64,000 nucleotides of DNA, from IMG/VR virus record IMGVR_UViG_3300025132_000002. The stretch is one strand, 5' to 3'. This document shows, piece after piece, positions 9,611 through 36,238 of the stretch. Within the stretch, counting starts at the first letter, position 1; the number at the start of each line of letters is the position of its first letter. The position numbers and the translations under genes were made by a program. The stretch comes from an uncultured virus (IMG/VR IMGVR_UViG_3300025132_000002) (Duplodnaviria > Heunggongvirae > Uroviricota > Caudoviricetes). The notes under the pieces are model-generated. The model was not told the origin of the DNA, did not search any database, and saw only the letters and a program-made list of their open reading frames with translations.

Positions 9611-9634
9611 ACATCTCTCCAATGGTTAAGGTAG

Positions 9635-9708
9635 TGGGCTCTCTCGGGCTTGAACCGAGGACCATCCGGTTATGAGCCGGGTGCTCTGACCAACTGAGCT
9701 AAGAGCCC
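9635..9708 (-). tRNA. tRNA-Ile2/Met (CAT), Ile2-like
   Basis: Cloverleaf GGGCTCTTAGCTCAG...GGCTCATAACC...GGTTCAAGCCC...GAGCCCA; CCA not encoded. Confidence 0.9.
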
Positions 9709-9902
9709 GTATTAGGTAGAGGGCAATCTACAATGACTCCCTCTTTATAATTTAGTTTCTTTCTTACTTTTACAGAACCTTCGGGTGTTTCAACAGAACA
9801 AGTGTTTTTATTGCACTGGTCTATAACACACTCAGGAGCATCAGGCAACTCAGGATTAGAGCTACCAACAACAAAAGCAAACAGGGTAAACATATTAGTC
9901 AC
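9699..9902 (-). CDS. Small Cys-containing hypothetical protein
   Basis: ORF between tRNAs; last codons overlap the tRNA 5' end. Confidence 0.4.
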   Translation of the reverse strand: MTNMFTLFAFVVGSSNPELPDAPECVIDQCNKNTCSVETPEGSVKVRKKLNYKEGVIVDCPLPNTGS

Positions 9903-9913
9903 TTATAAGGTAG

Positions 9914-9986
9914 TGGGTTGTCTGGGGCTCGAACCCAGGACCATCGGCTTAAAAGGCCGGTGCTCTACCGACTGAGCTAACAACCC
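9914..9986 (-). tRNA. tRNA-Lys (TTT)
   Basis: GGGTTGTTAGCTCAG...CCTTTTAAG...GGTTCGAGCCC...CAACCCA. Confidence 0.93.
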
Positions 9987-9994
9987 GAAAGAAG

Positions 9995-10077
9995 TGGGCG
10001 AGGCGGGAATCGAACCCGCATGGCCTATGGCCGGGAGATTTTAAGTCTCATGTGTCTACCAATTCCACCACTCGCCC
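9995..10077 (-). tRNA. tRNA-Leu (TAA)
   Basis: GGGCGAGTGGTGGAATTGG...ACTTAAAAT, long variable arm GGCC-ATA-GGCC, GGTTCGATTCCC. Confidence 0.93.
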
Positions 10078-10083
10078 GTATCG

Positions 10084-10290
10084 TCAATCGCGGTCAATCC
10101 GCTGAATGATCATAATGGTTTCGCCGTCCTCTACAATATTGACGGGCTCCGTCCATTGTTTGTTAGCTTCTACGTACTTAGCCAACTCGGCGCCCTTCAA
10201 GTCACCGGGAACCTGTAGGATGCTGGCTCCGCTCAGGTAGCCAAACGTCGTACCATCGTCAAGGATAATCACAAAGTCTCTGTCTTCCAT
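10084..10290 (-). CDS. Hypothetical protein
   Basis: TTGGAGAG RBS before ATG at 10290. Confidence 0.6.
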   Translation of the reverse strand: MEDRDFVIILDDGTTFGYLSGASILQVPGDLKGAELAKYVEANKQWTEPVNIVEDGETIMIIQRIDRD

Positions 10291-10312
10291 TGTTCTCTCC
10301 AATAAAGTTAAG

Positions 10313-10386
10313 CGCCCCGAATAGGGATCGAACCTATGACATTCGGCTTAGAAGGCCGATGCTCTATCCAACTGAGCTACCGAGGC
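10313..10386 (-). tRNA. tRNA-Arg (TCT)
   Basis: GCCTCGGTAGCTCAG...CCTTCTAAG...GGTTCGATCCC...CGGGGCG. Confidence 0.93.
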
Positions 10387-19684: not shown

Positions 19685-20125
19685 TCACTCCAATGTGATC
19701 GACTGCTGAAAAGACACATACTCATCATATGCTTCTTTAACCTTTTCTCCAATGAAGGTCAAGTCATTGTAGCATTTGTAGGACTTGCCCTTGAAAGCCC
19801 GTGTATCGCGGGAACTGGTAACGACAAGCGTGACATAGTATTCAACGTCCCGGTATTTCTCAATTGGTGTCCCGTCTTCGTAAGTCTCCCCGGTGCGGAA
19901 CCGTTCGGATTCAAGGTATCGAACGGGGGCGATAGCAATATATACTTCTTCGCCCCGTTGCGGTTCATAGGCCAGTCTAAGTTTTGCGCAAAACCCCGCC
20001 GTCACCTGTTGTGTGTCGGGTCCAAAGCAATACTTCACTAAATGTTTACCGTTACCTTGCTCCCATCGCGTAGATGGTACAAGGGGGGAAGCGTTCAAAA
20101 CGTCTGCCAAGGATGGAATAATCAT
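19685..20125 (-). CDS. Hypothetical protein
   Basis: TTGGAGAG RBS. Confidence 0.6.
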   Translation of the reverse strand: MIIPSLADVLNASPLVPSTRWEQGNGKHLVKYCFGPDTQQVTAGFCAKLRLAYEPQRGEEVYIAIAPVRYLESERFRTGETYEDGTPIEKYRDVEYYVTLVVTSSRDTRAFKGKSYKCYNDLTFIGEKVKEAYDEYVSFQQSITLE

Positions 20126-20166
20126 CACACTCTCCAATGTCAAGCATAGAAAAGAGATAGGATAGT

Positions 20167-20246
20167 GTGTGAGGGCTTTAGCCCGGTGTGCCGATCAAGG
20201 GTGACATACCGGTCTCTTCAAAACTTCAACACTAAAACCCTCACAC
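20167..20246 (-). ncRNA. Candidate small structured RNA (80 nt)
   Basis: 15-bp closing stem, large one-sided bulge, inner ~10-bp stem. Confidence 0.45.
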
Positions 20247-20290
20247 GATGACACGTCATAGGACGCGCCAAACTACCCAAACCATTGTTA

Positions 20291-20340
20291 ATGGTTCACC
20301 CTATGACATACTGAAACCAATATGTCAAGGGGAGAATCAT
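20291..20340 (-). promoter_or_regulatory. Hairpin element, copy G (short loop)
   Basis: GATTCTCCCCTTGACATATTG...CAGTATGTCATAGGGTGAACC. Confidence 0.7.
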
Positions 20341-20352
20341 CAAACTTTATGA

Positions 20353-20583
20353 TCACCCCCATTCCTGTGGCCAATACCGCACATCATCGCCCCGACCATT
20401 ACTCCAATTTGAGTCGGATAGGTCGATACCTTGTCGAAGGCAAAACGATCGGGTCCACACTTTGACGATATAGCCGGGCGGTAGATCCTTAGCTATTTCG
20501 ATGGCGTCCTCTTTGAATTCAGCGCCGGCCAAAACTTGTTCGGTGCGGCTGTTAATGACGTAAAAAGGGTATTCAGGATACAT
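20353..20583 (-). CDS. Hypothetical protein
   Basis: TTGGAGAGG RBS. Confidence 0.6.
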   Translation of the reverse strand: MYPEYPFYVINSRTEQVLAGAEFKEDAIEIAKDLPPGYIVKVWTRSFCLRQGIDLSDSNWSNGRGDDVRYWPQEWG

Positions 20584-20597
20584 AGTCCTCTCCAAAG

Positions 20598-21005
20598 TTA
20601 AAAGGAAGTCGGTACGCAGTCAAGGCCCTCACCAAAACGGGTGTAACTGAAAACACAGTTAACCCTACAGCTACCATTTGTCACGGTAACTTTTGCTTTT
20701 GAGCCCGACTGAAACGTAGCGCTCTCACCCTTATAGGGTTTTGGCAATACAACGGTGATACTGTACCACCATGTAACGTCACTGTGTTTCCGGATAGGGT
20801 CACCGATCAAACGGAAGGTATCCCATAGCGGCCCGCTTTCGGGGATGTCCAACCGAGAACTCGGGGCGCTGTACCGTTTACCCCATTGCTCCAACGTCCA
20901 AAAAACGCCATCATAGCAGTCAACGTCATCGTCCCAGCCATAGCAGTCGATAAGATACCCACGACGTCCTACAGACTTACGAATTTCTTTAAGCATATCT
21001 TGCAT
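20598..21005 (-). CDS. Hypothetical protein
   Basis: TTGGAGAG RBS. Confidence 0.6.
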   Translation of the reverse strand: MQDMLKEIRKSVGRRGYLIDCYGWDDDVDCYDGVFWTLEQWGKRYSAPSSRLDIPESGPLWDTFRLIGDPIRKHSDVTWWYSITVVLPKPYKGESATFQSGSKAKVTVTNGSCRVNCVFSYTRFGEGLDCVPTSF

Positions 21006-21015
21006 AGTTCTCTCC

Positions 21016-21067
21016 AATGGTTCACCCTATGACACACTAATGATAGTATGTCAAGGGGAGAATCATT
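21016..21067 (-). promoter_or_regulatory. Hairpin element, copy H (short loop)
   Basis: GATTCTCCCCTTGACATACTA-TCAT-TAGTGTGTCATAGGGTGAACC. Confidence 0.7.
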
Positions 21068-21311
21068 CAAGCGTTTCAATTTTGTCGATATAAATACGGT
21101 TCAGATTCCAATGGTTGACGGACCTACGGAATTGCCACGCATAAATCGTACGGTCAAGTCGCATAACACCGCTAACAGCTACATCCCAGCCCGGTCGCCC
21201 TTGCCACCTGTCATGGGCTTTAGCCGCATAGATACGGGCTCCAGGGTACTTCTCACAAAGTACCTTACGGGCATGTTCTACCGTTGGTCGTTCTACTTGA
21301 ACATAGGCCAT
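21063..21311 (-). CDS. Hypothetical protein
   Basis: TTGGAG RBS. Confidence 0.6.
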   Translation of the reverse strand: MAYVQVERPTVEHARKVLCEKYPGARIYAAKAHDRWQGRPGWDVAVSGVMRLDRTIYAWQFRRSVNHWNLNRIYIDKIETLE

Positions 21312-21382
21312 AGCTCACACTCCAAAGAAGATGACAAAGAAGACGCAGAAGGCCACAAAGGGCCAAAACCAGGGACGCCGGA

Positions 21383-21811
21383 TCATCCAAGCTCCCGATC
21401 CAATTCGCGGGCCTTCCACCCTACGAACCCTTGACGACGGCCAGTATCAGCCGGTTCGGACGGTGGGCGATAGTACCACTTGACATATTCCTGCCACTTG
21501 TTGACCGAGCCGTACTTAGCGGTACGGTGAATTCGTGCCAGCAGACACTTTTCTGCCATAGATACATCGGGATCTTCCCAAACTGCCTCAAACGTCCATG
21601 GCAGCTTATTGTACGGCAACGGCTTATCCGTCAACCATAGATCGGCATATTCCACGATTTCGGTGTAGCCTTCACTAATTGCGCTGTTTCGCAAGTCGGC
21701 CACGGTTTCATCGCCGCTCAGCAGACGATCACCATAGCGATCGGTGCTCAGAATTTCATCGGTTGACGGGCAGATAGGTCGCCCGTTCATAGCTACAGTG
21801 ACCAGAGACAT
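21383..21811 (-). CDS. Hypothetical protein
   Basis: AGGAGAG RBS. Confidence 0.6.
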   Translation of the reverse strand: MSLVTVAMNGRPICPSTDEILSTDRYGDRLLSGDETVADLRNSAISEGYTEIVEYADLWLTDKPLPYNKLPWTFEAVWEDPDVSMAEKCLLARIHRTAKYGSVNKWQEYVKWYYRPPSEPADTGRRQGFVGWKARELDRELG

Positions 21812-21884
21812 AGCGCTCTCCTATTGTTAACACGGTTAAACGAAAGGACTAACAGATAGTCCCTAACTTTAACGGTATTAACGG

Positions 21885-22124
21885 TCAGTCTACGGGTACC
21901 ATGAAAACGAACTCATGGGCCTTTCCTGACTTCCGATCGATCACGCGCAGACTAAAACCACGCCTAATGATCTTCCCCGCTTCATCTTGATCGGGTACGA
22001 CTTCAGCCGTCATAACCTCGATCCCTTCTCGGAGCTTCATACCAGACGAATAGAAATCGTGGGAGTAGGGGTTAGCCCCTGGCGGCATGAACGCAAACGG
22101 GCCGCTATCAAACACCTTATCCAT
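21885..22124 (-). CDS. Hypothetical protein
   Basis: AGGAG RBS. Confidence 0.6.
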   Translation of the reverse strand: MDKVFDSGPFAFMPPGANPYSHDFYSSGMKLREGIEVMTAEVVPDQDEAGKIIRRGFSLRVIDRKSGKAHEFVFMVPVD

Positions 22125-22191
22125 GGTTCGCTCCTATTGTTAGCATAGTCAATAAAAGCCATAAGCGGACTTATGGCCTATGTTGAACATG

Positions 22192-22398
22192 TCAACCGAT
22201 ACCGCGCCTTTTCAATTCCTGCCGATAGACAGAACACTGATCGCGGTACTTCCCCGCACGACAACCCCGTTCCATGGGCATAGCGCGGTCAAGGGCGTCC
22301 ATAGCGAACGCCGTACAGATAGCGTCCCGAAGGGCGTCCTGTAGGGTAAAGGTGTCCATACGACGGGCTGTATCGGCCCACACGGCCCACGGGGTCAT
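22192..22398 (-). CDS. Hypothetical protein (KY.DQ....RQEL.RR motif)
   Basis: Coupled to the upstream ORF by an ATGA overlap. Confidence 0.6.
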   Translation of the reverse strand: MTPWAVWADTARRMDTFTLQDALRDAICTAFAMDALDRAMPMERGCRAGKYRDQCSVYRQELKRRGIG

Positions 22399-22619
22399 GC
22401 CGCCACCGCCTCACCCTTGACGGGCTCCGCGACAGGGTATTGACGGGCCCAATCGGCATCGATCCGATCCCACGCCGTATCACTGAGCACGCGCGGTTCG
22501 TGCCACCCCACACTTCTACCAGTCGAGAGCAGAACGGGCCCACGACGGGGCGTATCTCGGATTGCGTCTTGCCATTCGTCGAGCCGCTCGTTTGCATCTT
22601 TCAGCAATTTGTCAACCAT
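22395..22619 (-). CDS. Hypothetical protein
   Basis: TTGGAG RBS. Confidence 0.55.
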   Translation of the reverse strand: MVDKLLKDANERLDEWQDAIRDTPRRGPVLLSTGRSVGWHEPRVLSDTAWDRIDADWARQYPVAEPVKGEAVAA

Positions 22620-22698
22620 AATATACCACTCCAATCGAAACCTAATGTTTCGTCAAAGGCCATAAGCGGACTTATGGCTAATGATGAATCATTACGAT

Positions 22699-23049
22699 TT
22701 AGACGCTCCACACCCTTTGCCTTTCGGCAAGTGCGGCTTTCCCACGCAACCACCGCACGGATTCGTCGCTATTGGCGACATTCCACAAAGCGCGGAGCAT
22801 ATCCATAGCCGCGCCTTTATTGTAAAAGTTTTCCGTTCCGGCGTGGCCGCCCATACCGAAGTTACGGTAACGAGCCAACCTCCGCACATGATCGGGATCG
22901 CGCTGGTTAGAGACGCTACCCCACACCGACCATCCCTGAATGGCGCGGCCCTTATCCATTAAAAAGGTCGGGCTACAGGTAGCCTCAACCCAAACCGATC
23001 GGGCTTCTTCCGGTGACATAGCCCTTGTATCCCGACAAAACATAGTCAT
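22699..23049 (-). CDS. Hypothetical protein, first gene of the early operon
   Basis: GGGAG RBS directly after the structured leader. Confidence 0.55.
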   Translation of the reverse strand: MTMFCRDTRAMSPEEARSVWVEATCSPTFLMDKGRAIQGWSVWGSVSNQRDPDHVRRLARYRNFGMGGHAGTENFYNKGAAMDMLRALWNVANSDESVRWLRGKAALAERQRVWSV

Positions 23050-23063
23050 AATAGCCCGCTCCC

Positions 23064-24038
23064 ATTGTTTGATTAAAGGCGTCGGAAAGCCCGGTAAACT
23101 TTACAAAATGCGTAGAAAACGGTGGGCCCGCATACCTTATGGCCCGTTACTGCTCCCCTTTAGCCGGAGCACCATTACACACGAAAACTCTACAAAACAT
23201 CCGACGCCAGCGATCAAACAATCGCAAAACGCTTGTCTTACAATAATACAGGGAGCTTCGAACCCTTCACCATTTTAGCCCACCACGGACCACACCGGAT
23301 CCGTTTTAACTATAAACAGCTACTGCGCATATACCAGACAAACTGGTTCCGTTGTCGCATACGCTATGGGGACTTGCGGCTATCCGCTCCCTACATGTAG
23401 GGTTCCCGCCTAACAACGAATTATAAGTTCGATTACTTTATACCTTTAAGACATAATCATGGCGCCTTGACTTCCGAGGACAGCTAAAAGCCGCCCTTGC
23501 CGATACTCTCCACGCCTACCACCAATTCCCATGGTCACTTGCTCCGCCGTGGGTACGTTCCGGGTCCGCTTGCCAGCGATTATCCGAAGACGTAACTATA
23601 TTGTGATGTCAAAGAGACCGCCGCTTTCGCGCCGTGGCTCCTCAGACCGCTCCTAATGAATTGTGATCTCAGACTTTGTGGTGCCTACATAGCCGAAGCT
23701 ACCGTGTCCCCGCTTGTCACGGGTAAGATCCTGCCGGATCGGGCTTGTCGTCTGATACCTTCCCAAGGAAGCCGCGTCCGTCGCTCGTACGGTAATCAGC
23801 GGTCAGGGTAGACCGTTGCGCAATTTGACGAATCCGATTGACGCCCCCGTCTGCTTTCCCCGAATCCACGGGTTCCACATAGGGTTTTCGATAAGGGTGC
23901 CGGGGCACCTAAGCACTAAGGATCGGCGGTTCTGTTGTATCTGCTACCGATCTATAGTCCCCGAATCGAGGCGTCTCACATAGCCGTCAAGGCTTCCAAG
24001 GGTGCTTCAGGCTTAACCTGAAACGGAACACAATTCAT
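23064..24038 (-). ncRNA. Candidate large structured ncRNA(s)/leader
   Basis: No credible ORF; many hairpins including two cUUCGg loops; closing stems 23656-23665/24029-24038 and 23064-23086/23200-23222. Confidence 0.55.
23607..23631 (-). promoter_or_regulatory. boxB-boxA antitermination-like site 2
   Basis: CGC-GAAA-GCG hairpin followed by GTCTCTTTGACA. Confidence 0.55.
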
Positions 24039-24046
24039 ATTCGCGA

Positions 24047-24075
24047 TTTGAAAGAGCGTCGGGATTTTCATCCCG
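24047..24075 (-). promoter_or_regulatory. boxB-boxA antitermination-like site 1
   Basis: CGGGAT-GAAA-ATCCCG hairpin followed by CGCTCTTTCAAA. Confidence 0.6.
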
Positions 24076-24082
24076 CCCCAGA

Positions 24083-24120
24083 CCTTTAAGGGTTCTGGGG
24101 TTTCCCGTCAAGGAAAAAAA
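24083..24120 (-). promoter_or_regulatory. sigma70-type leftward early promoter
   Basis: T-tract (UP-like)-CC-TTGACG-N17-TAAAGG; the -10 lies in the loop of a CCCCAGA/TCTGGGG inverted repeat. Confidence 0.55.
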
Positions 24121-24268
24121 TTCATTCTTCCCTTTCGGCCGAATCGGTATTCCCGGCTCGGGTCGTTCAGGGCGGTTGGCGTTGCGCCGTCCATCCCTTC
24201 AGACGAAAACGGTATATCACTTCCAATCGGTCGGATTAGTCGAAAATGGCTCTAACGTACACTAAGCC

Positions 24269-24900
24269 AAAACGCTGTGCTGATGGGGGTTTTCGTCAAA
24301 ACGCGGATTGGGCCAATTGGCGAGAATGCCCATGAATACGGTGTCCATTGCTTTTCTTCGCGTTGGCGTAATTTAGCACCTCCTCGTTGAATGATGCTCT
24401 ATGCGCCACATATCTTCGCCTCCGTTGACGAGAAGCCCCTATCCATCGACATTCTCGGCAAGGGGGAGAAGGGGGAGTGGCCGAGAGTGGGCTGATACTG
24501 GGCTTTCTCGTCAACGCCTCAGATCGGGCGGCTCCTCCTGGCTTGCCGTTATCGGGTGATAAGCCGCTGATACCGGGCATTCTCGGGCAATCGGGGGACC
24601 AAAACAATTTTTTCCCTAAAGAAACGCCACGTCAGGAAAGCTGAAGATCGGGCGCCGATCGGGGTTTTCGCCGTTGTCGCCGTTGCCCTACGATCGGCAT
24701 TCCGTAGAAGGTCTTTCAAAACATTGTGCTGGTCGGGCTTCTCAGCCTTTAAGGGTCAATCGGGGTCAATCGGGGCCTATGCCGTGGCACACCCTGCCAT
24801 CATAGTAGAAAGTTCAAAACATCGGCTGTGACGGCGTTTGACAATTCCCGATTTTCGCTGAAGCTATTTCAAAACATCGGCTGTGACGGGCTTCTCGCCG
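24269..24900. repeat. Degenerate dispersed repeats (iteron/terminus-like)
   Basis: TTCAAAACATCGGCTGTGACGG exact at 24813 and 24868; related GCTG...GGGCTTCTC units near 24269, 24487, 24563, 24718. Confidence 0.55.
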
Positions 24901-25209
24901 TCTATGGCAGAAAACGCCCCTTTTCGGTGGGTAGTTCCCAGAATTAATTGGGGGGAGTCGGGTTTGGGGGAATTGGGCTCTTTTGGTGTATGGAAGGGAT
25001 AGGGTCTAATTGATCAGTTCAATGGGTGTATATGGTTAGATCGGGTGGTGGTGCATGTTTTGGAGAAGCTTCTACAAAGGATAGAAAATCCTTCACTTGG
25101 TGAGAAGGCCCATGATCACGATGTTTTGAACCCTCTTCTACTCTATAAGATTTAAAACATTGGACAGAATTGGGCCGTTTGTACTCACTTTGTACAGGGT
25201 TTCCCCTTA

Positions 25210-25225
25210 TGCAATTCCCGTGCCA
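25210..25225 (-). promoter_or_regulatory. sigma54 -24/-12 consensus
   Basis: TGGCACG-GGAA-TTGCA. Confidence 0.6.
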
Positions 25226-25278
25226 AGGTTTCATTTTATATCGAACGTTCGTTATGCCCGGTGGGGTCCTGGTCGGAC

Positions 25279-25306
25279 AAAAGAAAAGCCCCGCCGAAGC
25301 GGGGCT
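25279..25306 (-). terminator. Intrinsic terminator
   Basis: AGCCCCGC-TTCG-GCGGGGCT followed by TTTCTTTT, downstream of ORF 25342-25695. Confidence 0.85.
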
Positions 25307-25341
25307 AAGAGCCGAAAAGGCCCATGGTTAGGGGGTTTTGG

Positions 25342-25695
25342 TCACATGGCGTACCGGAACCAAGCGTGTCCCAGGGCGTCCACTACCATCTCGTTAGCCT
25401 TCTTTATGTCGGCTTCCATGCGACGGCTCTTAGCGTTGTGAATCGGGTAGTGGCCGGCATTTCGGGGCAATTCCTCCTCTACATAAAAGTACAATTCTGT
25501 CTCCGCTGCTTGGATCTCCATAGCCAGGAAACCATAAAGGCACCGCCTCCCGAGAGCACCGCACTCCTGGATGTCTTCCAAAAGTTCGGTAACGACGGTG
25601 ATGATGCCCTTTTCCCAGCACGCCGGGGTGTAGGGCTTCTTTACGCGGTATGTGGTGCCGTCGGGGTTCTTAACGATCATTGTGTGGCTTTCCAT
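25342..25695 (-). CDS. Hypothetical protein, monocistronic
   Basis: TTGGAG RBS, own terminator, upstream sigma54-like site. Confidence 0.6.
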   Translation of the reverse strand: MESHTMIVKNPDGTTYRVKKPYTPACWEKGIITVVTELLEDIQECGALGRRCLYGFLAMEIQAAETELYFYVEEELPRNAGHYPIHNAKSRRMEADIKKANEMVVDALGHAWFRYAM

Positions 25696-25793
25696 AGTTA
25701 CTCCAAATGGCCGGGAAGATTAAGTCGGCCGAATGGCCGGTAATTGCTTTTAAGACCAGGGGCAAATTTTAAATTGCCTGGGTTCTTTCCCTA

Positions 25794-25809
25794 TGCAATT
25801 TTCATGCCA
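25794..25809 (-). promoter_or_regulatory. sigma54 -24/-12 consensus
   Basis: TGGCATG-AAAA-TTGCA. Confidence 0.55.
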
Positions 25810-25909
25810 TGTTTTACCTTTGTCAAGCGGATGTCAAAACCCTGCTCACCTGTCCAGTGATTTCCTTTGACACGTCAAGGCTTTCTGGACATATTCTGTC
25901 CGCCTTGGC

Positions 25910-25925
25910 TGGCACGATAATTGCC
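25910..25925 (+). promoter_or_regulatory. sigma54 -24/-12 consensus
   Basis: TGGCACG-ATAA-TTGCC. Confidence 0.55.
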
Positions 25926-26101
25926 GGACACTGAACATAAAGGGCTTTTGTTCAGGTCAGAAATTGTCCGTTTCGCCTGTGGGCCCTTCTGCGGCGATCT
26001 GAATGGTACCGGACGCCCGATCGCGTCGATCGCTCACAGGGGCTCACAGGGGCTCCGAGAGGCATAGTGTCAAGCTGACACGAACCCCGCCGATCTGGGG
26101 T

Positions 26102-26117
26102 TGGCACGGATATTGCA
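26102..26117 (+). promoter_or_regulatory. sigma54 -24/-12 consensus
   Basis: TGGCACG-GATA-TTGCA. Confidence 0.6.
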
Positions 26118-26550
26118 TAGGAAACGGGCAAGCTCACACGGGCCCATACCGAACGCTTGTTACGTACCACCGGCATGAGGGGAACCCCTATACGCAGATC
26201 CCCTAAGTAGATCCCCTCACCCGCCCGCCTCGCCTAAATGCAATTGAATCCCATTATCAACTTGACATCCCCCTGACATCTCCCCGATCGTTGTGATCAC
26301 AACGACTTCAAACATCAACCATCAAATAATTTTTTGAAAGCCCCATTGCCCCCCCAAAGCTTTATTATTCTAATTCTCACCCCCCAGAAATTCCGCGAGC
26401 AAATTTTCAAATTAAAAAAGGTAGAAGTTTTTTCTAACCTAGAGGTGAAGAAATTTCAACCCATTCCTTGCGGGGCACATTCCGCAGGGTTACAGGATGG
26501 GTGGGCCTGACGAGCGGGTCGCGCACTTTTCCCACACATGAGACTGAGCC

Positions 26551-27678
26551 ATGTCTATTATCAAATCTTTATTTGACTCTTATCCAATGTTTGTAGATAC
26601 AAAGCCTGACGCGAATAAGGTTACAGACGGCGCGGGGCGTTACATGGACCCGGCAGTTGTGGTCAGGTTGTTATCATATTCGATTGACGCCGATCCGGCA
26701 ACCCAAAAGACTGTGACAATGGCGTTCGCGGACCATTTAGCTGCTGCCACTCCTTCAGTCCCAACGGCTGTGATCGCGCCCGAACCAGAAAAAATGGAGT
26801 TTGTGCCTTCTGTTAATATACCGGAGCAGTTGTCTTTGTTCGACCGAACGATTGAAGCAGCCCCTAAAAATGAGGTAGCTCCGACCCCTACCGTTACCAT
26901 TCCCCCACCCCCTAACAGCCCTTCAGCGGGGTCGGTTACGACCGTAACATGCCCTTACTGCGTCTCTGAGTATGACGTTACTACCTCGGCCATAAACCCC
27001 CACGACCCTAAAACATTATGTCGATACTGCGGTAACTGGTTTAAGGTTTCCCTTGACCAAAAAGAAGAAGATTCCGATGTGGTCGCTCCTGGGCCAAGCG
27101 GCGAAGAAATCCCGGCTGTGTCAATGGAGCCGTTCTTAGACCGAGCGGTGGAAAAGGTAACTAACCTTCCGTGGACAGAAAACGTTACAGTAGCAGAAGA
27201 CGGTACCTCCCCTCTCTCCGATGCCTACAAGTTTATCAAAAACAGCCGACTCATTAACTTTGTTGTCCGGCTGAGCCCGCCCTCCACCGCAAACACCGGA
27301 ATCTACTCTGAGTCTAACGTAGGAGGTGCGTACCAGTGTTACGGAGCAGTTGTTGTTGGTGAAGCATCGCCTTCCATGGGAGATATGCCCGACGTTGCGA
27401 CAGGGGCGCTACTGAGAGCCCGGCTGTTCGATCTTGAAGACGAAACTCCTGTGTTCTTTCACATCATGCACCGAGTAGAGGTTGTCAACGCTATCCGTAA
27501 TACGGAGTTATTCGCCTCATTCTCTCGCAGTGTTGCATCGGAACATCAGGATAGAGTGAATAACCGCGCGGCTGAAGCCAAGGCGAAGGAAGAGGACGAG
27601 TTAGGCGCTATCCTTAGCGACCCGACAATGGTTAAAGCCCTGTTCGCCCGACTTATGAAGAATGCGGAGAGTAACTGA
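26551..27678 (+). CDS. Hypothetical protein with central zinc ribbon
   Basis: VTCPYC...LCRYCGNWF between Pro-rich linkers. Confidence 0.7.
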   Translation: MSIIKSLFDSYPMFVDTKPDANKVTDGAGRYMDPAVVVRLLSYSIDADPATQKTVTMAFADHLAAATPSVPTAVIAPEPEKMEFVPSVNIPEQLSLFDRTIEAAPKNEVAPTPTVTIPPPPNSPSAGSVTTVTCPYCVSEYDVTTSAINPHDPKTLCRYCGNWFKVSLDQKEEDSDVVAPGPSGEEIPAVSMEPFLDRAVEKVTNLPWTENVTVAEDGTSPLSDAYKFIKNSRLINFVVRLSPPSTANTGIYSESNVGGAYQCYGAVVVGEASPSMGDMPDVATGALLRARLFDLEDETPVFFHIMHRVEVVNAIRNTELFASFSRSVASEHQDRVNNRAAEAKAKEEDELGAILSDPTMVKALFARLMKNAESN

Positions 27679-30093: not shown

Positions 30094-30338
30094 TGCTATG
30101 CCCATCTTGTGATTGCAGTGGAGATAAAGTAATATTCTCGGCTAAGGCCGAGCATAAGTATAAAAATGTGCCTAACTGGTTTAGGGCTTTTACGGAGCAC
30201 TACCCTTCATGTATAGTTAGAAGGCGCCGCTGTAAGACTTGTGGCCACCGCTACTACACATTAGAGTTACCCGTAAAAGACTTTAAGTATCTGGGCGACC
30301 CCGCCCAGGTTAAAGAACTACCACTAAAAGACAAATGA
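30093..30338 (+). CDS. NrdR-like zinc-ribbon protein lacking the ATP cone
   Basis: MLCPSC...IVRRRRCKTCGHRYYTLE. Confidence 0.7.
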   Translation: MLCPSCDCSGDKVIFSAKAEHKYKNVPNWFRAFTEHYPSCIVRRRRCKTCGHRYYTLELPVKDFKYLGDPAQVKELPLKDK

Positions 30339-30913
30339 CTAAAAAGCCCCGAAGAAGAAATGTAATATGTAAGGATCTACCCGGCGAACGGTGGCGAACC
30401 ATTCCCGGCTTTCCTGATGTATACGAAGTTTCATCCTTTGGGCGTGCGCGTACATGGCTGGGTAAAGGCCGAGCAATGAAAAGCGGTAGGGGCGAGATTG
30501 CCTACCTGATGAACCTGCTGCCAGATAGAGCGGGCTATCTACGGGTCAGGATGACTCTTCCCGGCAAGCGCATAAAGACACCATTTATTCACACGCTGGT
30601 GTTGACAGCCTTTGTCGGACCCCGCCCTGATAACTGTATGACACGGCATTTAGATGGGTGCCCCGCCAACAACATAATATGCAATCTCGCCTGGGGCACA
30701 GCTCAGCAAAACGCAGACGACCGAAAGTTTCACGGTACCGATAGGCTCGGTGAGAATCACCCAAGGAGTAAACTAACGGCGTCTGACGTTAGGCAGATCA
30801 GGGCTTTGTGCGAAGCCGGCGAATCTCAAAAGAAGACGGCAGAAAGGTTCGGCGTTTCCCAACAGGTAATAAGCCAAATCAAACGCCGCCTGCTTTGGGC
30901 GCACTTAGATTAG
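30335..30913 (+). CDS. NUMOD4-HNH homing endonuclease
   Basis: ERWRTIPGF..YEVSSFGR (NUMOD4); HTLVLTAFVG...RHLDG...NN...NLAWGT...N; C-terminal HTH. Confidence 0.9.
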   Translation: MTKKPRRRNVICKDLPGERWRTIPGFPDVYEVSSFGRARTWLGKGRAMKSGRGEIAYLMNLLPDRAGYLRVRMTLPGKRIKTPFIHTLVLTAFVGPRPDNCMTRHLDGCPANNIICNLAWGTAQQNADDRKFHGTDRLGENHPRSKLTASDVRQIRALCEAGESQKKTAERFGVSQQVISQIKRRLLWAHLD

Positions 30914-31893
30914 AAAATACCAACAGTGTTAGTCGGCAAAGTCAAATCTTGCGGCAAGCTGGTTCCTGCACCGCTCGGACGAGACGCCAAGGTTTCAGCC
31001 GCAGGAGGCTTAGACGCTGACGGGTTCTGGTTGGGGTACTTGTGCATCATGCGGCTTTCAATGATTTCATCAATCTCTTTGATGTCACTGTCAGTGGCAT
31101 TAGGGTTAGCACTCAGGAAGCCCTGCATGAGACGGTAGTAGTCGTCCATGGCAGTTTCGTACCGCTGGTCACCCACAAGGTGGGGCATTGCGGATTCAAA
31201 CAGTTGCACAGCCTTTTCGGCTTCGTACTGTTCTGTCTGTTTACGAAGCTGTTGCAGCTCAGACTGAAGCTGGCGGTTGCTTTGGCGTTCGCGCAAAACG
31301 TGTTCGTTTAGCTGTCCCTGATAGTGATCGTGGACTGCCTTTTCCCGGCCCTGTAACTGACGGGCGAACTCAGCCAGCTTTTTGTTGTGCGAGTAAAACT
31401 GGTTAGCTTCTTGGGTTCTTTGCCCGAGCTGTTGGTTGAAGCTTTGCAGCTTTCCGCTAAGCGAGTCTAACTGGGCTTTGTAACCGCCTTCCAGGGCTTT
31501 GAACCGTTCATCGGCGGTAGCGTCTTCAGACGAAGCCGATTCCAGAGAGTTAAGGGTAGTAGCCAAACGCTGTTGCATTGACTGCACTTGCTCATAGGCG
31601 GCGTCAAGCTGGCGGCTTTTTTGTGACTGCGCGGTTGTATGCTTGTGCAAGGCAGAAGTGGCGTTATTTCTGACTCTTTCATAGCCTGCGCTAATAGCAG
31701 ACTTGATATTGTCATCAAGGCCCGAATACCAATCTTGTTCATTGAGACTGGGAAGTTCGCCATTCCAGTTGTACGAAGCCGGCGCGGATTCCATGGTTGG
31801 CGCGGACTCCATAGCTGGAGCTGCATCCATCACAGGGGCCGCACTGTCTGCGCTTACGATATCTGATGGGGTGTTTGGTTGCTCGTCCGACAT
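30910..31893 (-). CDS. Putative capsid scaffolding protein
   Basis: Acidic N-terminus, long coiled coil, downstream of portal. Confidence 0.55.
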   Translation of the reverse strand: MSDEQPNTPSDIVSADSAAPVMDAAPAMESAPTMESAPASYNWNGELPSLNEQDWYSGLDDNIKSAISAGYERVRNNATSALHKHTTAQSQKSRQLDAAYEQVQSMQQRLATTLNSLESASSEDATADERFKALEGGYKAQLDSLSGKLQSFNQQLGQRTQEANQFYSHNKKLAEFARQLQGREKAVHDHYQGQLNEHVLRERQSNRQLQSELQQLRKQTEQYEAEKAVQLFESAMPHLVGDQRYETAMDDYYRLMQGFLSANPNATDSDIKEIDEIIESRMMHKYPNQNPSASKPPAAETLASRPSGAGTSLPQDLTLPTNTVGIF

Positions 31894-31919
31894 CTTATCT
31901 CCATTAACCGTTTGGTTGG

Positions 31920-32366
31920 TCAGACCATAGGAACTTTGTTAGGGTTGCTATCGCCCTTCATGGTCTGGACAAGGCCGACAAGCTGGTCAACCATATCAGG
32001 ACTTTGTGCAAGTGCAGCAAGTAGTCCTTCCATTCCACCAGCGTTTTCAAGCAAGCCGGACTTTTCGAGGAACTCTTGCAGTTCTTCTTCAGTAACACCA
32101 GCCTTTTCGGCAAGCTCGGCAGCAGTCATCATCTTAGCGGGCTTAGCAGCAGGCTTGTCAGCAGTTTCAACAGCAGCAGTTTCCACTGCCTCTTCTTCAA
32201 CTGCGGGCATTTCGGCCTTTGGCCCAGCATCTTTCATCATCGGTTCAGCCATTTTAGCTCCTTTAGCTTGGGGCTTACTAGGGGTTAGTAACACATCACT
32301 TGTGTCGGTATTCATAACCTCGTTAATAAGGCCACGAATATCCTCATAGCTGGGGTTTTGGGCCAT
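31920..32366 (-). CDS. Hypothetical head-module protein
   Basis: Low-complexity ORF with GAGG RBS. Confidence 0.6.
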   Translation of the reverse strand: MAQNPSYEDIRGLINEVMNTDTSDVLLTPSKPQAKGAKMAEPMMKDAGPKAEMPAVEEEAVETAAVETADKPAAKPAKMMTAAELAEKAGVTEEELQEFLEKSGLLENAGGMEGLLAALAQSPDMVDQLVGLVQTMKGDSNPNKVPMV

Positions 32367-32380
32367 AGCTATGCCTCTTA

Positions 32381-32773
32381 CTAGAGAGTTTTAAGTTCTT
32401 TTACGGGACGATCCGCAAAACGTTTTGCGATATGAGGCGATCTAGCAGCGTAGTCTTTTACAACCTTGTGCCTAAGTTCCTCAATCTCGACTTTTCTTTT
32501 ATATTCGTTTATGGGCTCAATGCGCAAGTTTTCTGCCGACTCCCCAACGTGGGTTCGGGCCATGCCGGCTAACATACGCTTTTCTTCTGCCTTAGAAGAA
32601 ATCATTGTCTGCCCATTATTGTAGGGCCGAAAGAGCTGAAATACGGAACCGGATGCACCGCCTGTTGACAGCTTTCTTTTCATCTCCGTATCACAGCATA
32701 CGGGAATAGGCTCATCATCAAAGGCTTCTGCCTGATCTCTACAGCTTGTACAAACAAATCCTAATAACAACAT
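32381..32773 (-). CDS. Zinc-ribbon protein downstream of portal
   Basis: CTSC...CC...MKRKLS, FmdB-like. Confidence 0.55.
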   Translation of the reverse strand: MLLLGFVCTSCRDQAEAFDDEPIPVCCDTEMKRKLSTGGASGSVFQLFRPYNNGQTMISSKAEEKRMLAGMARTHVGESAENLRIEPINEYKRKVEIEELRHKVVKDYAARSPHIAKRFADRPVKELKTL

Positions 32774-32783
32774 TGTAATACCT

Positions 32784-34433
32784 TTATTCCTGCGCCATCT
32801 GTGCTACTTGTTCTTGGTTAGGACTGCCTTCAGCCGGATCTACTTCAGCCGCCTGTGTTGACGCTTCTGCCATTTGATCTATCCCTGGTTGTGCTTGCTG
32901 TCCAGCGGGTTCTGGATTGTACAAGGTTGAAGGGATACCAAAGCCTTCCATTATGATTTCGTAGAATTCTCTTTGGTTGACGTTGGGGTTGTTCATAAGC
33001 AGGTTGCTCATCTTGCCCACCACGTCTGCTAAAAGCTGCGGGTTGTTTTTGATGGGCGAGTAGGGAGCAATGTCAAAGTGCCCATTGAAGTTCTTTAGGT
33101 CGATCTGGTTCAGCTCAGAAAAGGTGTCCCTGTGCTTCACAGAATACGGACCCTGACCATACTTTTGGAGCAGGCGCATACAGCGCTCACCCACACGACT
33201 GATAGCATCGCGGAAGTTACCTTCACGGAAAGCTACTCTATCACGAGCGTAGGCAGAAATATCTGCGGCTTCTCGGGCTGTTCTAATGTTCTGTGCGGCC
33301 CCTCTCGATTGTGATGTGAGGCCCGAAACAAACTGGGCGTCCCCGATCATGATCTCTCGTGCCCGAATAAGCTGTGGGTCTAAGTTAGCCGTAGGCGTAG
33401 GCATGAAAGCCTGAGCTAAGGGGGCTCCCTGGGGGCTGGTCATCCTGACTGGAGTGTAGGAACCGGCAGGGGCGTGATACGCCTTGGCCAAGTCACCCAT
33501 GTCAACAATGCCCGAATCGACCATAATCCTAGGCAGAATACGGTGGATGACTTGGTGCATCGTTGTGTTAATATTGTTGATGGCTTCCTGCTGGGGGATA
33601 ATAAGTTCCAGCTCGGACAACCCATCTAAGTTTCTAAGGTTGTGGTTAAGGCTAAACATAGACAACGGCTGGTCATCTATTTCGCCTTCCCATATGATGG
33701 TACCGGTGGTTTCGTGCCAGTGATAAGCACGCATACCAATCATATCGTAGATTTCCCAAACGATAGCGATACCGAAAACTTCATCGACAGAAAGCTGATC
33801 GGATTGGTCTCCTAGCATTGCCCATTGGGGCGTAGTGTCGGGAGCGACCGGATCTGCAAGTTTGCCCGGTCTTTTGTAGACTCCCATTTCGACGCGCTTT
33901 TTAAACAGTCGCCAAGGCATTTCGACCATATGAGTCCAGAATCTAGACTCTCTATGGGCTTTTGCGCTGGGGTCGTAGCCTACGTGACTGGGCTCTACCG
34001 TAAAGATTTTAGGCTTTTTCTTAATCGGGTCAATAATAGTTTTGAAAATACCCCGTCTTTTAGTCAGGGCGTTGTCTAGCGCGATACCGCAAAGCTCCCG
34101 CATATCGTTTTCGCGGAAAACTTCGTTGATAAGGTGCGTAATCCGACCCTGTAGTTTGTGAGCTTCAGGGGTATGGCCGTTAGCTGCGACTGCAACTTCC
34201 TGACCCAAAAGCAGAAACTTAGCTGTCTCTACCGCAGTAAAGAAAAGGTTGACGCTACTACGGGGGTCGTCATGGAACTGAACACCTCTATTGGAGGCGC
34301 GGCTATTAAGATGAAAGAACTCGCCATTGTAGAAACGTTCTATTTTTGCAAATAGAGACTTTTCTTTTCCAATGTAATGTTTTTTATGCTGCGCCACCAA
34401 AACTTTTATATGATTAGTGTTCATGCGTTCCAT
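32784..34433 (-). CDS. Portal protein
   Basis: 549 aa directly after TerL; L.PQQ..IN, RTA.EA, Gln-rich tail typical of P22/T7-like portals. Confidence 0.8.
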   Translation of the reverse strand: MERMNTNHIKVLVAQHKKHYIGKEKSLFAKIERFYNGEFFHLNSRASNRGVQFHDDPRSSVNLFFTAVETAKFLLLGQEVAVAANGHTPEAHKLQGRITHLINEVFRENDMRELCGIALDNALTKRRGIFKTIIDPIKKKPKIFTVEPSHVGYDPSAKAHRESRFWTHMVEMPWRLFKKRVEMGVYKRPGKLADPVAPDTTPQWAMLGDQSDQLSVDEVFGIAIVWEIYDMIGMRAYHWHETTGTIIWEGEIDDQPLSMFSLNHNLRNLDGLSELELIIPQQEAINNINTTMHQVIHRILPRIMVDSGIVDMGDLAKAYHAPAGSYTPVRMTSPQGAPLAQAFMPTPTANLDPQLIRAREIMIGDAQFVSGLTSQSRGAAQNIRTAREAADISAYARDRVAFREGNFRDAISRVGERCMRLLQKYGQGPYSVKHRDTFSELNQIDLKNFNGHFDIAPYSPIKNNPQLLADVVGKMSNLLMNNPNVNQREFYEIIMEGFGIPSTLYNPEPAGQQAQPGIDQMAEASTQAAEVDPAEGSPNQEQVAQMAQE

Positions 34434-36238
34434 CCGGCACCGGGAGCCCAGGGATTGTCAGAATCCGCATTAGACCCTCTTCGGCGCTTTCTTAAATTGG
34501 TGTCTAACGTGGCCATTCTTGCTCTAAGCTCGGCGTCAGCTAAAAGGTTTAGATTTGCCTCTTGTTCTTTAATCCTATCGCGAAGCTCCATATCTGTCAA
34601 GTGACGAGGCCAGTTGAGCCGCGTTAGCGCCCATGCGGCAATAATGTAGGTTCTAGCTAGGTCGAAGTGCGATGTATTCTTACCCTTTGATATACGTCTA
34701 TCTCTGTTCTTGCCGTCAAAGTTTATTAACTGTTGTACCCCGGTAAGGCTATTTATTTTAATATCTTTAGTAGTCAAAGATACTTCCATATCCCCTTCAG
34801 CTTCCTGAATACTTTTTGATGTGGCCCGCCATCCCGGTTCCGTCCTACCTGATTTGTACGTCTGATGCCACACAGCATACCTATTTTCATTCATAGCAAT
34901 ACCCAGCAAAGCTGCTGCGTTTGACTCAATGATAACTGTGTTGCCTCTATTACGTCCGGCCTGTCTATATACTTGGGTAGCGGTAGTTAATAACGCATGA
35001 AGTTGTGTGGGCTGTACTCTTCCTTCCCAGGATGCCACCTCTTCCCAACTACTAACGTCAAAAACGGAGATAGCAGAATAGTCACCCTGTGAACCAAAGT
35101 TCGCCGGGTCTACACAAAACAAATAGAAACGTCTAGGGTTAGGGGCCACAAACTCCCATAGACCCGATCGTCCCGATTGTTCGTCACCTTTTAGCGCGTC
35201 ATCTTTCATTTCTCTAAGGTATTCAGCGGCCTTACCTGCATAAATCTTATTGGTTTGGGTAAGCCAGCCTTCTGTCGGACCTGGGGGATATTTATTATCG
35301 AACCGATCAGGCTGATTATCGAACGTAGCCGGAAGTGCCGCACGGCGGAAATAAATATGATGTCGCGTTGCGCCTTTTAGGCGGCCCATCATTTCACTTT
35401 CTTCTTCAGAAAGTGGCCCCAGTTCCACGGGTTCTTCGGTGTCCTCATCTAACAAACGTCTACGTTTGTCGACCCACCATTCAAGGAAGAGTGGATGCCA
35501 CCTCGTTGGTTGCCCAGGTGGAGGATTCCAAGTATTAAGCCATAATCTGTGCAGACGTGTACCCCAATCACCGGGAGTTGTTTCAAGGATAACTCTGGCA
35601 TTTGGTCTAGATTCTACAGCGGGAAACAGCTTTTCCTGTAACCGCCCAAAGGTGTCATCGTCCATTTCACAGCCTTCTGTGATATGAACTCTATCACGCG
35701 ACTTACCAACACCGGGAGACTTAGTGCCGACTGTGATTGAGGTAATCTGATTACCATTCTCAAACTCTATGCGCTCTCTTGTAGCCTTCGTTCCTTTTTT
35801 CAAAGGGTTTCTAAGTACGTCAGGTAGATTCTCAAACGCATAAATAATACGGTCCATGATTTCGTCGCAGGTGTCTCTGTCCTGCGCGACAATGGCAGTC
35901 TTAATAGCTTCGCCATACATAGTGTCTCTAAGCATCAGCAGGCACACAATAGTAGATATCATAGCCTGTCTGTACTTACTTACGTACAGCCATCTGTTAT
36001 TTTGGTAAGCGTCGGCAACGAGCATCTGTGCCGGCGTAGGATCCAGTAAAGCTTTTTGGCCTTCGTTTGTTTGAATATAGCAAGCACGAATAAAAGAGTC
36101 AGGCGTAGCAAAAAGTAAATCGACATGTAGCTTTTTTGCTTGATCTACCGGCTCTCCAGATTTATTACCGTACCAAAGCTTCATGCCTTTTGGTAGGCCC
36201 TTCAATTCAATATTGGCTAATGCCGTTTCATAGTTCAT
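34421..36238 (-). CDS. terL: Terminase large subunit
   Basis: KYRQAMIST (Walker A variant), VHITE (Walker B), ETT coupling motif, VDPA...DYSA nuclease, IESN, HFDL. Confidence 0.9.
   Translation of the reverse strand: MNYETALANIELKGLPKGMKLWYGNKSGEPVDQAKKLHVDLLFATPDSFIRACYIQTNEGQKALLDPTPAQMLVADAYQNNRWLYVSKYRQAMISTIVCLLMLRDTMYGEAIKTAIVAQDRDTCDEIMDRIIYAFENLPDVLRNPLKKGTKATRERIEFENGNQITSITVGTKSPGVGKSRDRVHITEGCEMDDDTFGRLQEKLFPAVESRPNARVILETTPGDWGTRLHRLWLNTWNPPPGQPTRWHPLFLEWWVDKRRRLLDEDTEEPVELGPLSEEESEMMGRLKGATRHHIYFRRAALPATFDNQPDRFDNKYPPGPTEGWLTQTNKIYAGKAAEYLREMKDDALKGDEQSGRSGLWEFVAPNPRRFYLFCVDPANFGSQGDYSAISVFDVSSWEEVASWEGRVQPTQLHALLTTATQVYRQAGRNRGNTVIIESNAAALLGIAMNENRYAVWHQTYKSGRTEPGWRATSKSIQEAEGDMEVSLTTKDIKINSLTGVQQLINFDGKNRDRRISKGKNTSHFDLARTYIIAAWALTRLNWPRHLTDMELRDRIKEQEANLNLLADAELRARMATLDTNLRKRRRGSNADSDNPWAPGAGWNA

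Follow-up and report, generated by a model that had tools for sequence, protein, structure and literature searches.

A 383-nt folded domain in a putative boxA-type early leader of an uncultured marine phage

Phage genomes are tightly packed, so a 1-kb stretch without open reading frames (ORFs) that folds better than shuffled sequence and has a G+C content above average is unusual and raises the question of what it is for. One such stretch lies in the IMG/VR record IMGVR_UViG_3300025132_000002, of which 64,000 nt from a divergent uncultured marine phage (the window) were analysed here. Within it lie 383 nt (positions 23656–24038, minus strand) that a first-pass annotation had taken for an abundant, processed and first-transcribed non-coding RNA (ncRNA) of possibly new class, placed like an rRNA behind a promoter, boxB and boxA. 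Our analysis leads us, tentatively, to a different answer: the 383-nt stretch may form a domain, closed in thermodynamic terms, within an untranslated and structured 5′ leader of ∼1.0 kb that is controlled by boxA and Nus-type factors. This leader would run from ∼24077 to 23050 and, again tentatively, head a leftward operon of small early genes (the leader, its promoter and all their parts are on the minus strand).

The stretch from 23279 to 24295 (1017 nt), which contains the candidate, is the longest in the window without an ORF of at least 70 amino acids (aa) on either strand. A site scan of the minus strand found no terminator-like site between 24100 and 23050, and the first gene that follows (22699–23049, minus strand, 116 aa) begins with an ATG at 23049 preceded by a GGGAG ribosome-binding site. 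Together, the length of the ORF-free stretch and the lack of a terminator ahead of a gene with a clear ribosome-binding site argue for a leader. Stop-codon recoding was considered as another account of the stretch and rejected, since reading TAG or TGA as sense opens no long frame across 23279–24295.

The upstream end of this putative leader carries a series of elements in an order familiar from rRNA (rrn) operons. A promoter-like site (24113–24083), consisting of a T-run, the −35 element CCTTGACG, 17 nt and the −10-like hexamer TAAAGG, and read in the first-pass annotation as TTGACG, 17 nt and TAAAGG, would place the start of transcription near 24077. Behind it come a GAAA hairpin and the boxA-like GCTCTTTCAA. 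The hairpin (24075–24060; CGGGAU-GAAA-AUCCCG, a 6-bp stem with a GNRA tetraloop) is found in both the minimum free energy (MFE) and the centroid folds and is here termed boxB-like on its position alone, and it is followed by the boxA-like element CGCUCUUUCAAAU (24058–24046) and, 7 nt further on, by the first strand of a long-range helix (24038–24029). Within the boxA-like element, GCTCTTTCAAA agrees with nine of the ten specified positions of GYTCTTTAANA, the gamma-proteobacterial boxA consensus (PMC5725501), which may not be that of the host. The exact 10-mer GCTCTTTMAA occurs once in the 64 kb, at this element, and its uniqueness supports the leader reading. As a repeated signal CTTAAAGG is weak, with 7 matches against 3.0 expected and 3 of 100 shuffles as high.

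The same order in rrn operons, where boxA anchors one strand of a long-range helix, is a further argument for a leader. According to PMC10250234, boxB, boxA and boxC follow one another just past the rrn promoter, boxA is necessary and sufficient for assembly of the Nus complex, and in a looping model boxA tethers the leader strand beside the RNA exit channel until its trailer partner comes out. The phage leader and the rRNA operon leader, which is read by an antitermination complex of NusA, NusB, NusE, NusG, SuhB and S4 (PMC10250234), are alike in that promoter, hairpin and a boxA-like core GCUCUUU come in the same order, in that a strand a few nucleotides past boxA pairs over a long range around structured untranslated RNA, and in that the flanks are conserved while enclosed and flanking spacers vary. 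The rRNA-like placement claimed earlier thus holds for the order of the elements but not for their dimensions: leader–trailer helices of rRNA need >17 bp, carry an RNase III site and have been measured at 27–44 bp, with boxC 18–19 nt after boxA (same source), whereas the phage helix has 10 bp plus 2–3 outer pairs and begins 7 nt after the boxA-like element. By helix length and spacing the phage leader therefore falls outside the rrn leader family. It differs also in that the 363 nt it encloses resemble no rRNA, that position 8 of its boxA is off consensus and that protein genes follow on the same transcript.

We next consider the fold of the candidate itself. As the first-pass annotation had described, it is closed by a perfect 10-bp stem in which ATGAATTGTG (24038–24029) pairs with CACAATTCAT (23665–23656). 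The MFE of the minus strand is −145.8 kcal/mol, compared with −125.5±6.3 for 100 dinucleotide shuffles, none of which folded as well (z=−3.21), while the plus strand reached z=−1.59 with 5 of 100 shuffles as good, a strand asymmetry that points to a minus-strand RNA. Both arms of the closing helix are paired with a probability of 0.83–1.0 in contexts of up to 1251 nt, and the candidate is still a closed domain within the fold of the 991 nt of surrounding RNA. This whole-leader fold also exceeds its shuffles (z=−3.56, 0 of 20 as good), as do the 3′ end of the leader (structured over 23050–23325; z=−3.84 for 23045–23325, 1 of 200 shuffles as good) and, in a relative whose protein is only 52% identical, the 280 nt ahead of the corresponding gene (L007:1–280, z=−5.03). 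These scores favour a leader that is structured as a whole, and since the upstream region of so distant a relative is structured as well, such a leader ahead of the 116-aa gene seems to be a trait of the lineage. Separately, we note that ∼100 nt ahead of its start codon the same relative has a terminator-like hairpin with a U-run.

Within the closing helix the predicted fold, with 10 G–U pairs among 121, comprises two parts. The first (24023–23757) holds a hairpin (24024–24004) and a large multi-branched subdomain (24002–23762), as taken from the helix list, and the second (23756–23666) is a 3′ subdomain closed by UCAGAC/GUCUGA with three hairpins, one of them UUCG-capped. GATTCGGGG occurs twice, as had been noted, and each copy lies within a 26-nt direct repeat (23857–23882 and 23958–23983, 81% identical). 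The hairpins listed earlier are all present in the sequence and six of the eight small ones form in the MFE fold; CCTCG/CGGGG and CTTCC/GGAAG take other, longer-range pairings. The density of hairpins that had been noted is not exceptional as such, since four 200-nt windows between 23600 and 24099 gave z-scores between +0.26 and −1.65; the signal lies in the long-range pairing. Nor is the closing stem significant on its own, as ∼25 perfect 10-mer inverted repeats spaced 50–500 nt apart are expected per window (25.4 in shuffles; 48 observed).

The promoter call gains support from ten paralogous sites in the same phage. These lie on the minus strand at 11.8–21.1 kb (first T of CTTGAC at 21055, 20329, 19286, 18153, 17334, 16164, 15343, 14138, 12838 and 11787, compared with 24112 for the leader site), and in each of them CCTTGAC follows a T-rich tract and the −10 element resembles TATAGT or TTAAGGGT. 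In an alignment with the leader site, all 11 rows agree in every CCTTGAC column. The family pattern, with at least ten near-identical members, can be written as a T-rich tract or ATTCTTTC, CCTTGACA, 17 nt and a TATAGT-like hexamer, often followed by GTCATTGAATGAA; allowing up to one mismatch, CCTTGACGG occurs 26 times against 12 expected. Most of the family members inspected lead to a ribosome-binding site and small ORF within ∼40–75 nt, whereas the 24113–24083 site leads instead to the GAAA hairpin and the boxA-like element. The existence of this family means that the candidate cannot be singled out as first-transcribed, as had been proposed, being served by one of at least 11 similar promoter-like sites and lying ∼2 kb from the divergent promoter zone.

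In the mechanism we propose, host RNA polymerase would initiate at a member of the phage's own promoter family, and the first 35 nt of the transcript, containing the GAAA hairpin and boxA-like element, would recruit host NusB/NusE and other Nus factors. The modified polymerase would then proceed through ∼1 kb of ribosome-free RNA that would otherwise be open to Rho and, close to the first gene, to hairpins resembling attenuators. Tethered 7 nt past boxA, the 5′ strand would, as in the model for rRNA operons, pair with a partner 360 nt further on and so close a domain whose centre can vary freely. Untranslated RNA of 1 kb is of the kind that needs protection from Rho, which favours Nus-dependent processive transcription of a structured leader in which the 383-nt domain closes co-transcriptionally, a scheme to which we would give slightly less than an even chance. 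If the boxA-like element does recruit Nus factors in the rRNA-operon order, the phage would be borrowing the transcription and folding machinery of host rRNA for a long ribosome-free RNA that leads into its early genes, without a lambda-style N protein, and the known targets of the Nus complex would be extended.

The safest description of the stretch is that of a phage's early leader whose Nus-type signals stand in the order known from rrn. Like lambdoid nut sites (PMC10250234), it has a boxA-like element and a GNRA-type hairpin near the 5′ end of an early transcript, before terminator-prone sequence. It departs from them in that the hairpin precedes boxA, as in rrn, whereas in lambda boxA precedes boxB, which sets it apart from nut sites. 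N proteins are small and poorly conserved, and that none was recognisable among the 66 proteins scanned is weak evidence. In suhB-type 5′ untranslated regions of cellular genes, an mRNA-leader boxA likewise binds NusB/E and alters the action of Rho and ribosomes downstream, but that boxA lies within 50 nt of the start codon (PMC5725501), where the phage has ∼1 kb of structured RNA in between. A full-text search of the literature on boxA, phage ncRNA and antitermination returned no paper that, by its title and the beginning of its abstract, describes a phage unit of such design.

Comparative evidence came from contigs of public sequencing runs mapped on 21000–27000 at a threshold of 80% identity. 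A relative of ∼90% identity (X3) is represented by a 1130-nt DNA contig that is ∼86% identical over 23430–23756 and over a 36-nt block at 24024–24059, and by a neighbouring contig ∼92% identical over 22728–23319. The first of these joins 23756 to 24024 and 24059 to 24361, with no alignment at ≥80% in between. The 36-nt block, which contains the boxA-like element and the 5′ arm, has thus been kept between two non-aligning stretches, and this retention supports the leader reading; the three-hairpin 3′ subdomain and the 3′ arm fall inside the conserved block 23430–23756. The central 267 of the 383 nt (23757–24023), by comparison, do not align in the only relative seen, although their flanks are 86–92% identical, and the edges of this variable segment lie 1–2 nt from predicted helix or subdomain boundaries. 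Arithmetic from depth bins and record coordinates puts ∼631 nt into the two unaligned gaps of the relative, against 568 nt here, suggesting that the centre has been replaced or has diverged rather than been deleted. This pattern of conservation, read from sequence, would fit a conserved scaffold with a centre free to vary and a recombination-prone spacer equally well, and it does not bear out the idea of a conserved class of RNA.

Contigs from RNA libraries of two studies cover parts of the leader, 23178–23290 and 23430–23597 (run X7, 23430–23569; run X11, 23466–23597), and add to the case for it. The deletion junction seen in the DNA relative recurs in one of them, which therefore derives from the phage: in the relative 23319 is joined to 23430, the X7 contig has a loose end at 23430, and the 110-nt segment in question (23320–23429) is missing in both relatives, with ∼10 letters in its place. 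The covered range, 23178–23597, lies downstream of 23656–24038, on which runs X7 and X11 have no contig; missing contig cover is no evidence of absence. Its two pieces, 23466–23597 and 23178–23290, fold no better than shuffles (z=−0.30 to −0.84). The 161-nt X11 contig consists of 23466–23597 (132 nt, one mismatch) flanked on either side by letters that look like adapter, and may represent a discrete short RNA or simply an insert of small size.

A number of observations weigh against a Nus-controlled leader with a specifically folded domain. Among 40 control tiles (383 nt, transcribed strand, 20 shuffles each) three reached z≤−3.2, one of which (22900–23282) is part of the same leader. The candidate folds better than its shuffles, with a structure signal that is only moderately above chance and suggestive, not decisive. 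The −10 hexamer TAAAGG is poor and, because it has no T at position 6, a generic sigma-70 scan missed the site; what the promoter proposed in the first-pass annotation shares with the ten other phage sites is its T-run and CCTTGAC part. The region 24020–24260, which spans the promoter-like site, has a strong fold of its own (z=−3.31, 1 of 200 shuffles as good), and transcription may for this reason begin further upstream. The boxA-like element has C in place of A at position 8 of the gamma-proteobacterial consensus. Comparative evidence on the candidate comes from the contig of one relative, and the presence of a contig in an RNA library is no proof of transcription, as a library can contain DNA and contigs give no strand, ends or abundance.

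Several of these points are shared by an explanation in which the fold of 23656–24038 has no function of its own, the candidate being a fast-evolving spacer in a mosaic early region where only the boxA block and 23430–23756 matter; the finding would then be an ordinary mosaic regulatory region. The equally well-folding control tiles and the frequency of 10-bp inverted repeats fit such a spacer, as do the unaligned centre, the indel-rich surroundings (110, 119 and 694 nt of the window are missing in the relative) and the position of the RNA-library contigs at 23178–23597. A spacer would not be expected to fold better on the minus strand than on the plus strand, or to have the lowest MFE of all 383-nt pieces folded (the best of the 40 control tiles reached −141.5 kcal/mol), or to have its variable segment apparently replaced at similar length. 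We regard this explanation as unlikely, though with a real chance of being right.

The evidence that supports a structured leader bears also on the original proposal of a stable, processed ∼380-nt ncRNA of a new class, cut out of a Nus-modified transcript at the closing helix in the manner of an rRNA. A minus strand that folds better than all 100 shuffles, a closing helix with a probability of ∼1.0, the rrn order of elements, both helix arms in blocks conserved in the relative and a variable segment with edges (23757 and 24023) close to predicted subdomain boundaries would all be expected of such an RNA, as would the lack of any known family at the locus. In Rfam 15 no model matched 22800–24600 at E≤10, in keeping with the novelty claimed, and this includes GOLLD, ROOL, tmRNA, RNase P, 6S, group I and II introns, C4 antisense RNA and riboswitches. 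Eight weak matches in 20000–27000 were all far below gathering scores, none of them inside 23050–24300, and at gathering score the whole window contains only four tRNAs. What speaks against a discrete RNA is the helix, which at 10 bp plus 2–3 outer pairs is far below the >17 bp needed for rRNA (PMC10250234), together with the lack of a terminator downstream of the candidate, the unremarkable local 200-nt z-scores and the failure of collection scans to find a homologue. The loss of alignment over 267 of 383 nt between flanks that are 86–92% identical is, moreover, unusual for an RNA with a complex fold. A discrete, processed ncRNA is on this evidence improbable.

GOLLD and ROOL, as far as the available parts of 10.1101/2024.12.08.627333 and PMC5737381 show, resemble the candidate in being large structured RNAs without ORFs that are often phage-borne, and differ from it in being broadly conserved, the candidate having no detectable relatives beyond a narrow lineage. 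The candidate matches no Rfam family of the HK022 put or P4 CI/P1 c4 type either. In those systems untranslated early-operon leaders carry functional RNA structure and internal repeats. A bolder version of the leader reading, which we consider a long shot, would be mimicry of an rRNA operon in its succession of promoter, hairpin, boxA, leader strand and trailer strand, with a Nus-modified polymerase making and co-transcriptionally closing a large ncRNA in which a hypervariable central domain of ∼270 nt could be exchanged as a module while the scaffold around it is conserved. If true, this would be a new kind of phage ncRNA.

The first-pass annotation had also called the region non-coding, with no credible ORF, and we agree. 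The longest ORF in the candidate is 63 aa (23717–23908, minus strand), and it is very unlikely that the interior encodes a small fast-evolving protein of this sort. The codon usage of the ORF (log-odds 0.129 per codon) is like that of neighbouring small genes (0.095–0.155), and only 3 of 83 spurious ORFs score higher, but with about ten ORFs scored a 4% tail would arise by chance. The ORF begins with GTG and lacks a Shine–Dalgarno sequence, whereas all five neighbouring small genes inspected (starts at 25695, 23049, 22619, 22398 and 22124) have an ATG preceded by GGAG, GAGG or AGGAG. A word-indexed search of 5.8 billion proteins yielded no candidate for it, and the one match among 1.84 billion representatives, a cadherin-repeat protein, was rejected as an artefact with a score that sums nine near-identical repeats of 13–14 identities each in 39 positions.

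An element acting at the level of DNA, either an invertible segment with the 10-bp inverted repeats at its ends or a replication or regulatory part beside iterons, would offer another explanation for the paired ends. A spacing of ∼360 bp between inverted repeats, as found here, is typical of invertons. Moreover, 25 of the 48 perfect 10-mer inverted repeats of the window fall within 21.6–26.1 kb, and ATGTTTTGAA occurs four times at 24715–25130, against 0.2 expected in the whole window. Although inverted repeats are thus present, no full domain of a recombinase, invertase or reverse transcriptase was found in the 66 proteins scanned, the only related match being a weak, sub-threshold resolvase-type helix–turn–helix (PF02796, E=6e-4) in the HNH endonuclease at 30335–30913, and no strand-changing joint was seen among the contigs of four runs. 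The strand asymmetry of the fold and its G–U pairs indicate RNA, and we hold a DNA element to be very unlikely. The ATGTTTTGAA copies belong to a second ORF-poor stretch (24704–25141), where they include a perfect 22-nt direct repeat (24813–24834 and 24868–24889) and inverted copies (25101–25141), and may be operator or iteron sites.

If the candidate is one domain of a leader, the remainder of that leader is uneven in structure. Its middle (23430–23655) is conserved, partly covered by the RNA-library contigs and weakly structured (z=−0.71 for 23420–23660). The structured 3′ end includes a 23-nt inverted repeat (23064–23086 and 23200–23222) that stops just before the ribosome-binding site of the first gene. 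The 116-aa product of that gene (22699–23049) belongs to no Pfam family that we could find and has two homologues (92% and 88%) among 5.8 billion proteins; a scan of JGI metagenomes gave two loci for it (L006 and L007) with only 125 and 273 nt upstream, short of the candidate. In the leader middle there is a 30-codon ORF (23538–23446) that has an internal ATG with GGAG ∼10 nt ahead of it. A strong GAGGAGGT ribosome-binding site (24385–24378, minus strand) lies upstream of the promoter-like site; 6 nt after it comes an ATT codon (24372), from which a frame of 36 codons runs to 24262 (codon score 0.110). Both site and start are inside a 50-nt block (24361–24410) conserved in the relative, and the frame may represent a small gene that uses a rare start codon.

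The lineage is rare. By blastn, 23000–24400 matched none of 50,697 phage records. In IMG/VR, four neighbouring proteins had no relatives and the portal protein gave five loci, none over the region, with none of the five records positive in a DNA search. Two 20-mers had no match in IMG/VR, a boxA 17-mer had one chance match that shares only those 17 nt, and a 20-mer had four chance matches among GTDB genomes, in gut metagenome-assembled genomes with only the 20-mer in common. A distant relative (G001, 94 kb, 69% G+C) has neither an ORF-free stretch nor a boxA-like site. The large terminase (34421–36238, minus strand) is at most 25.5% identical to any in the 50,697 phage records, a distance from the closest cultured phages too great to indicate a host. 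The four public runs used here, which contain parts of the region, are labelled as marine or seawater metagenomes.

The minus strand carries the genes left of ∼26,400; from 26,551 to the right most genes are on the plus strand, the exception being a block at 30910–36238 that includes the portal (32784–34433, minus strand) and the terminase. The phage also encodes a Dda-like helicase, a primase/helicase, two DNA methyltransferases and a dUTPase, and its four tRNA genes (9634–10386) lie ∼13 kb from the candidate. The HNH endonuclease at 30335–30913 is free-standing and of homing-endonuclease type (NUMOD4 and helix–turn–helix), between the dUTPase and structural genes. The contig of a ∼90% relative joins 25251 to 25946 and so lacks a 117-aa gene (25342–25695, minus strand), the strong terminator of that gene (25306–25287) and a promoter-like site, which makes 25252–25945 an accessory cassette. 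Finally, a 34-nt repeat, 88% identical between its copies at 22154–22187 and 22655–22688, places the hairpin AGCCATAAGTCCGCTTATGGC (minus strand) after two consecutive small genes, where it may be a shared terminator or processing signal.

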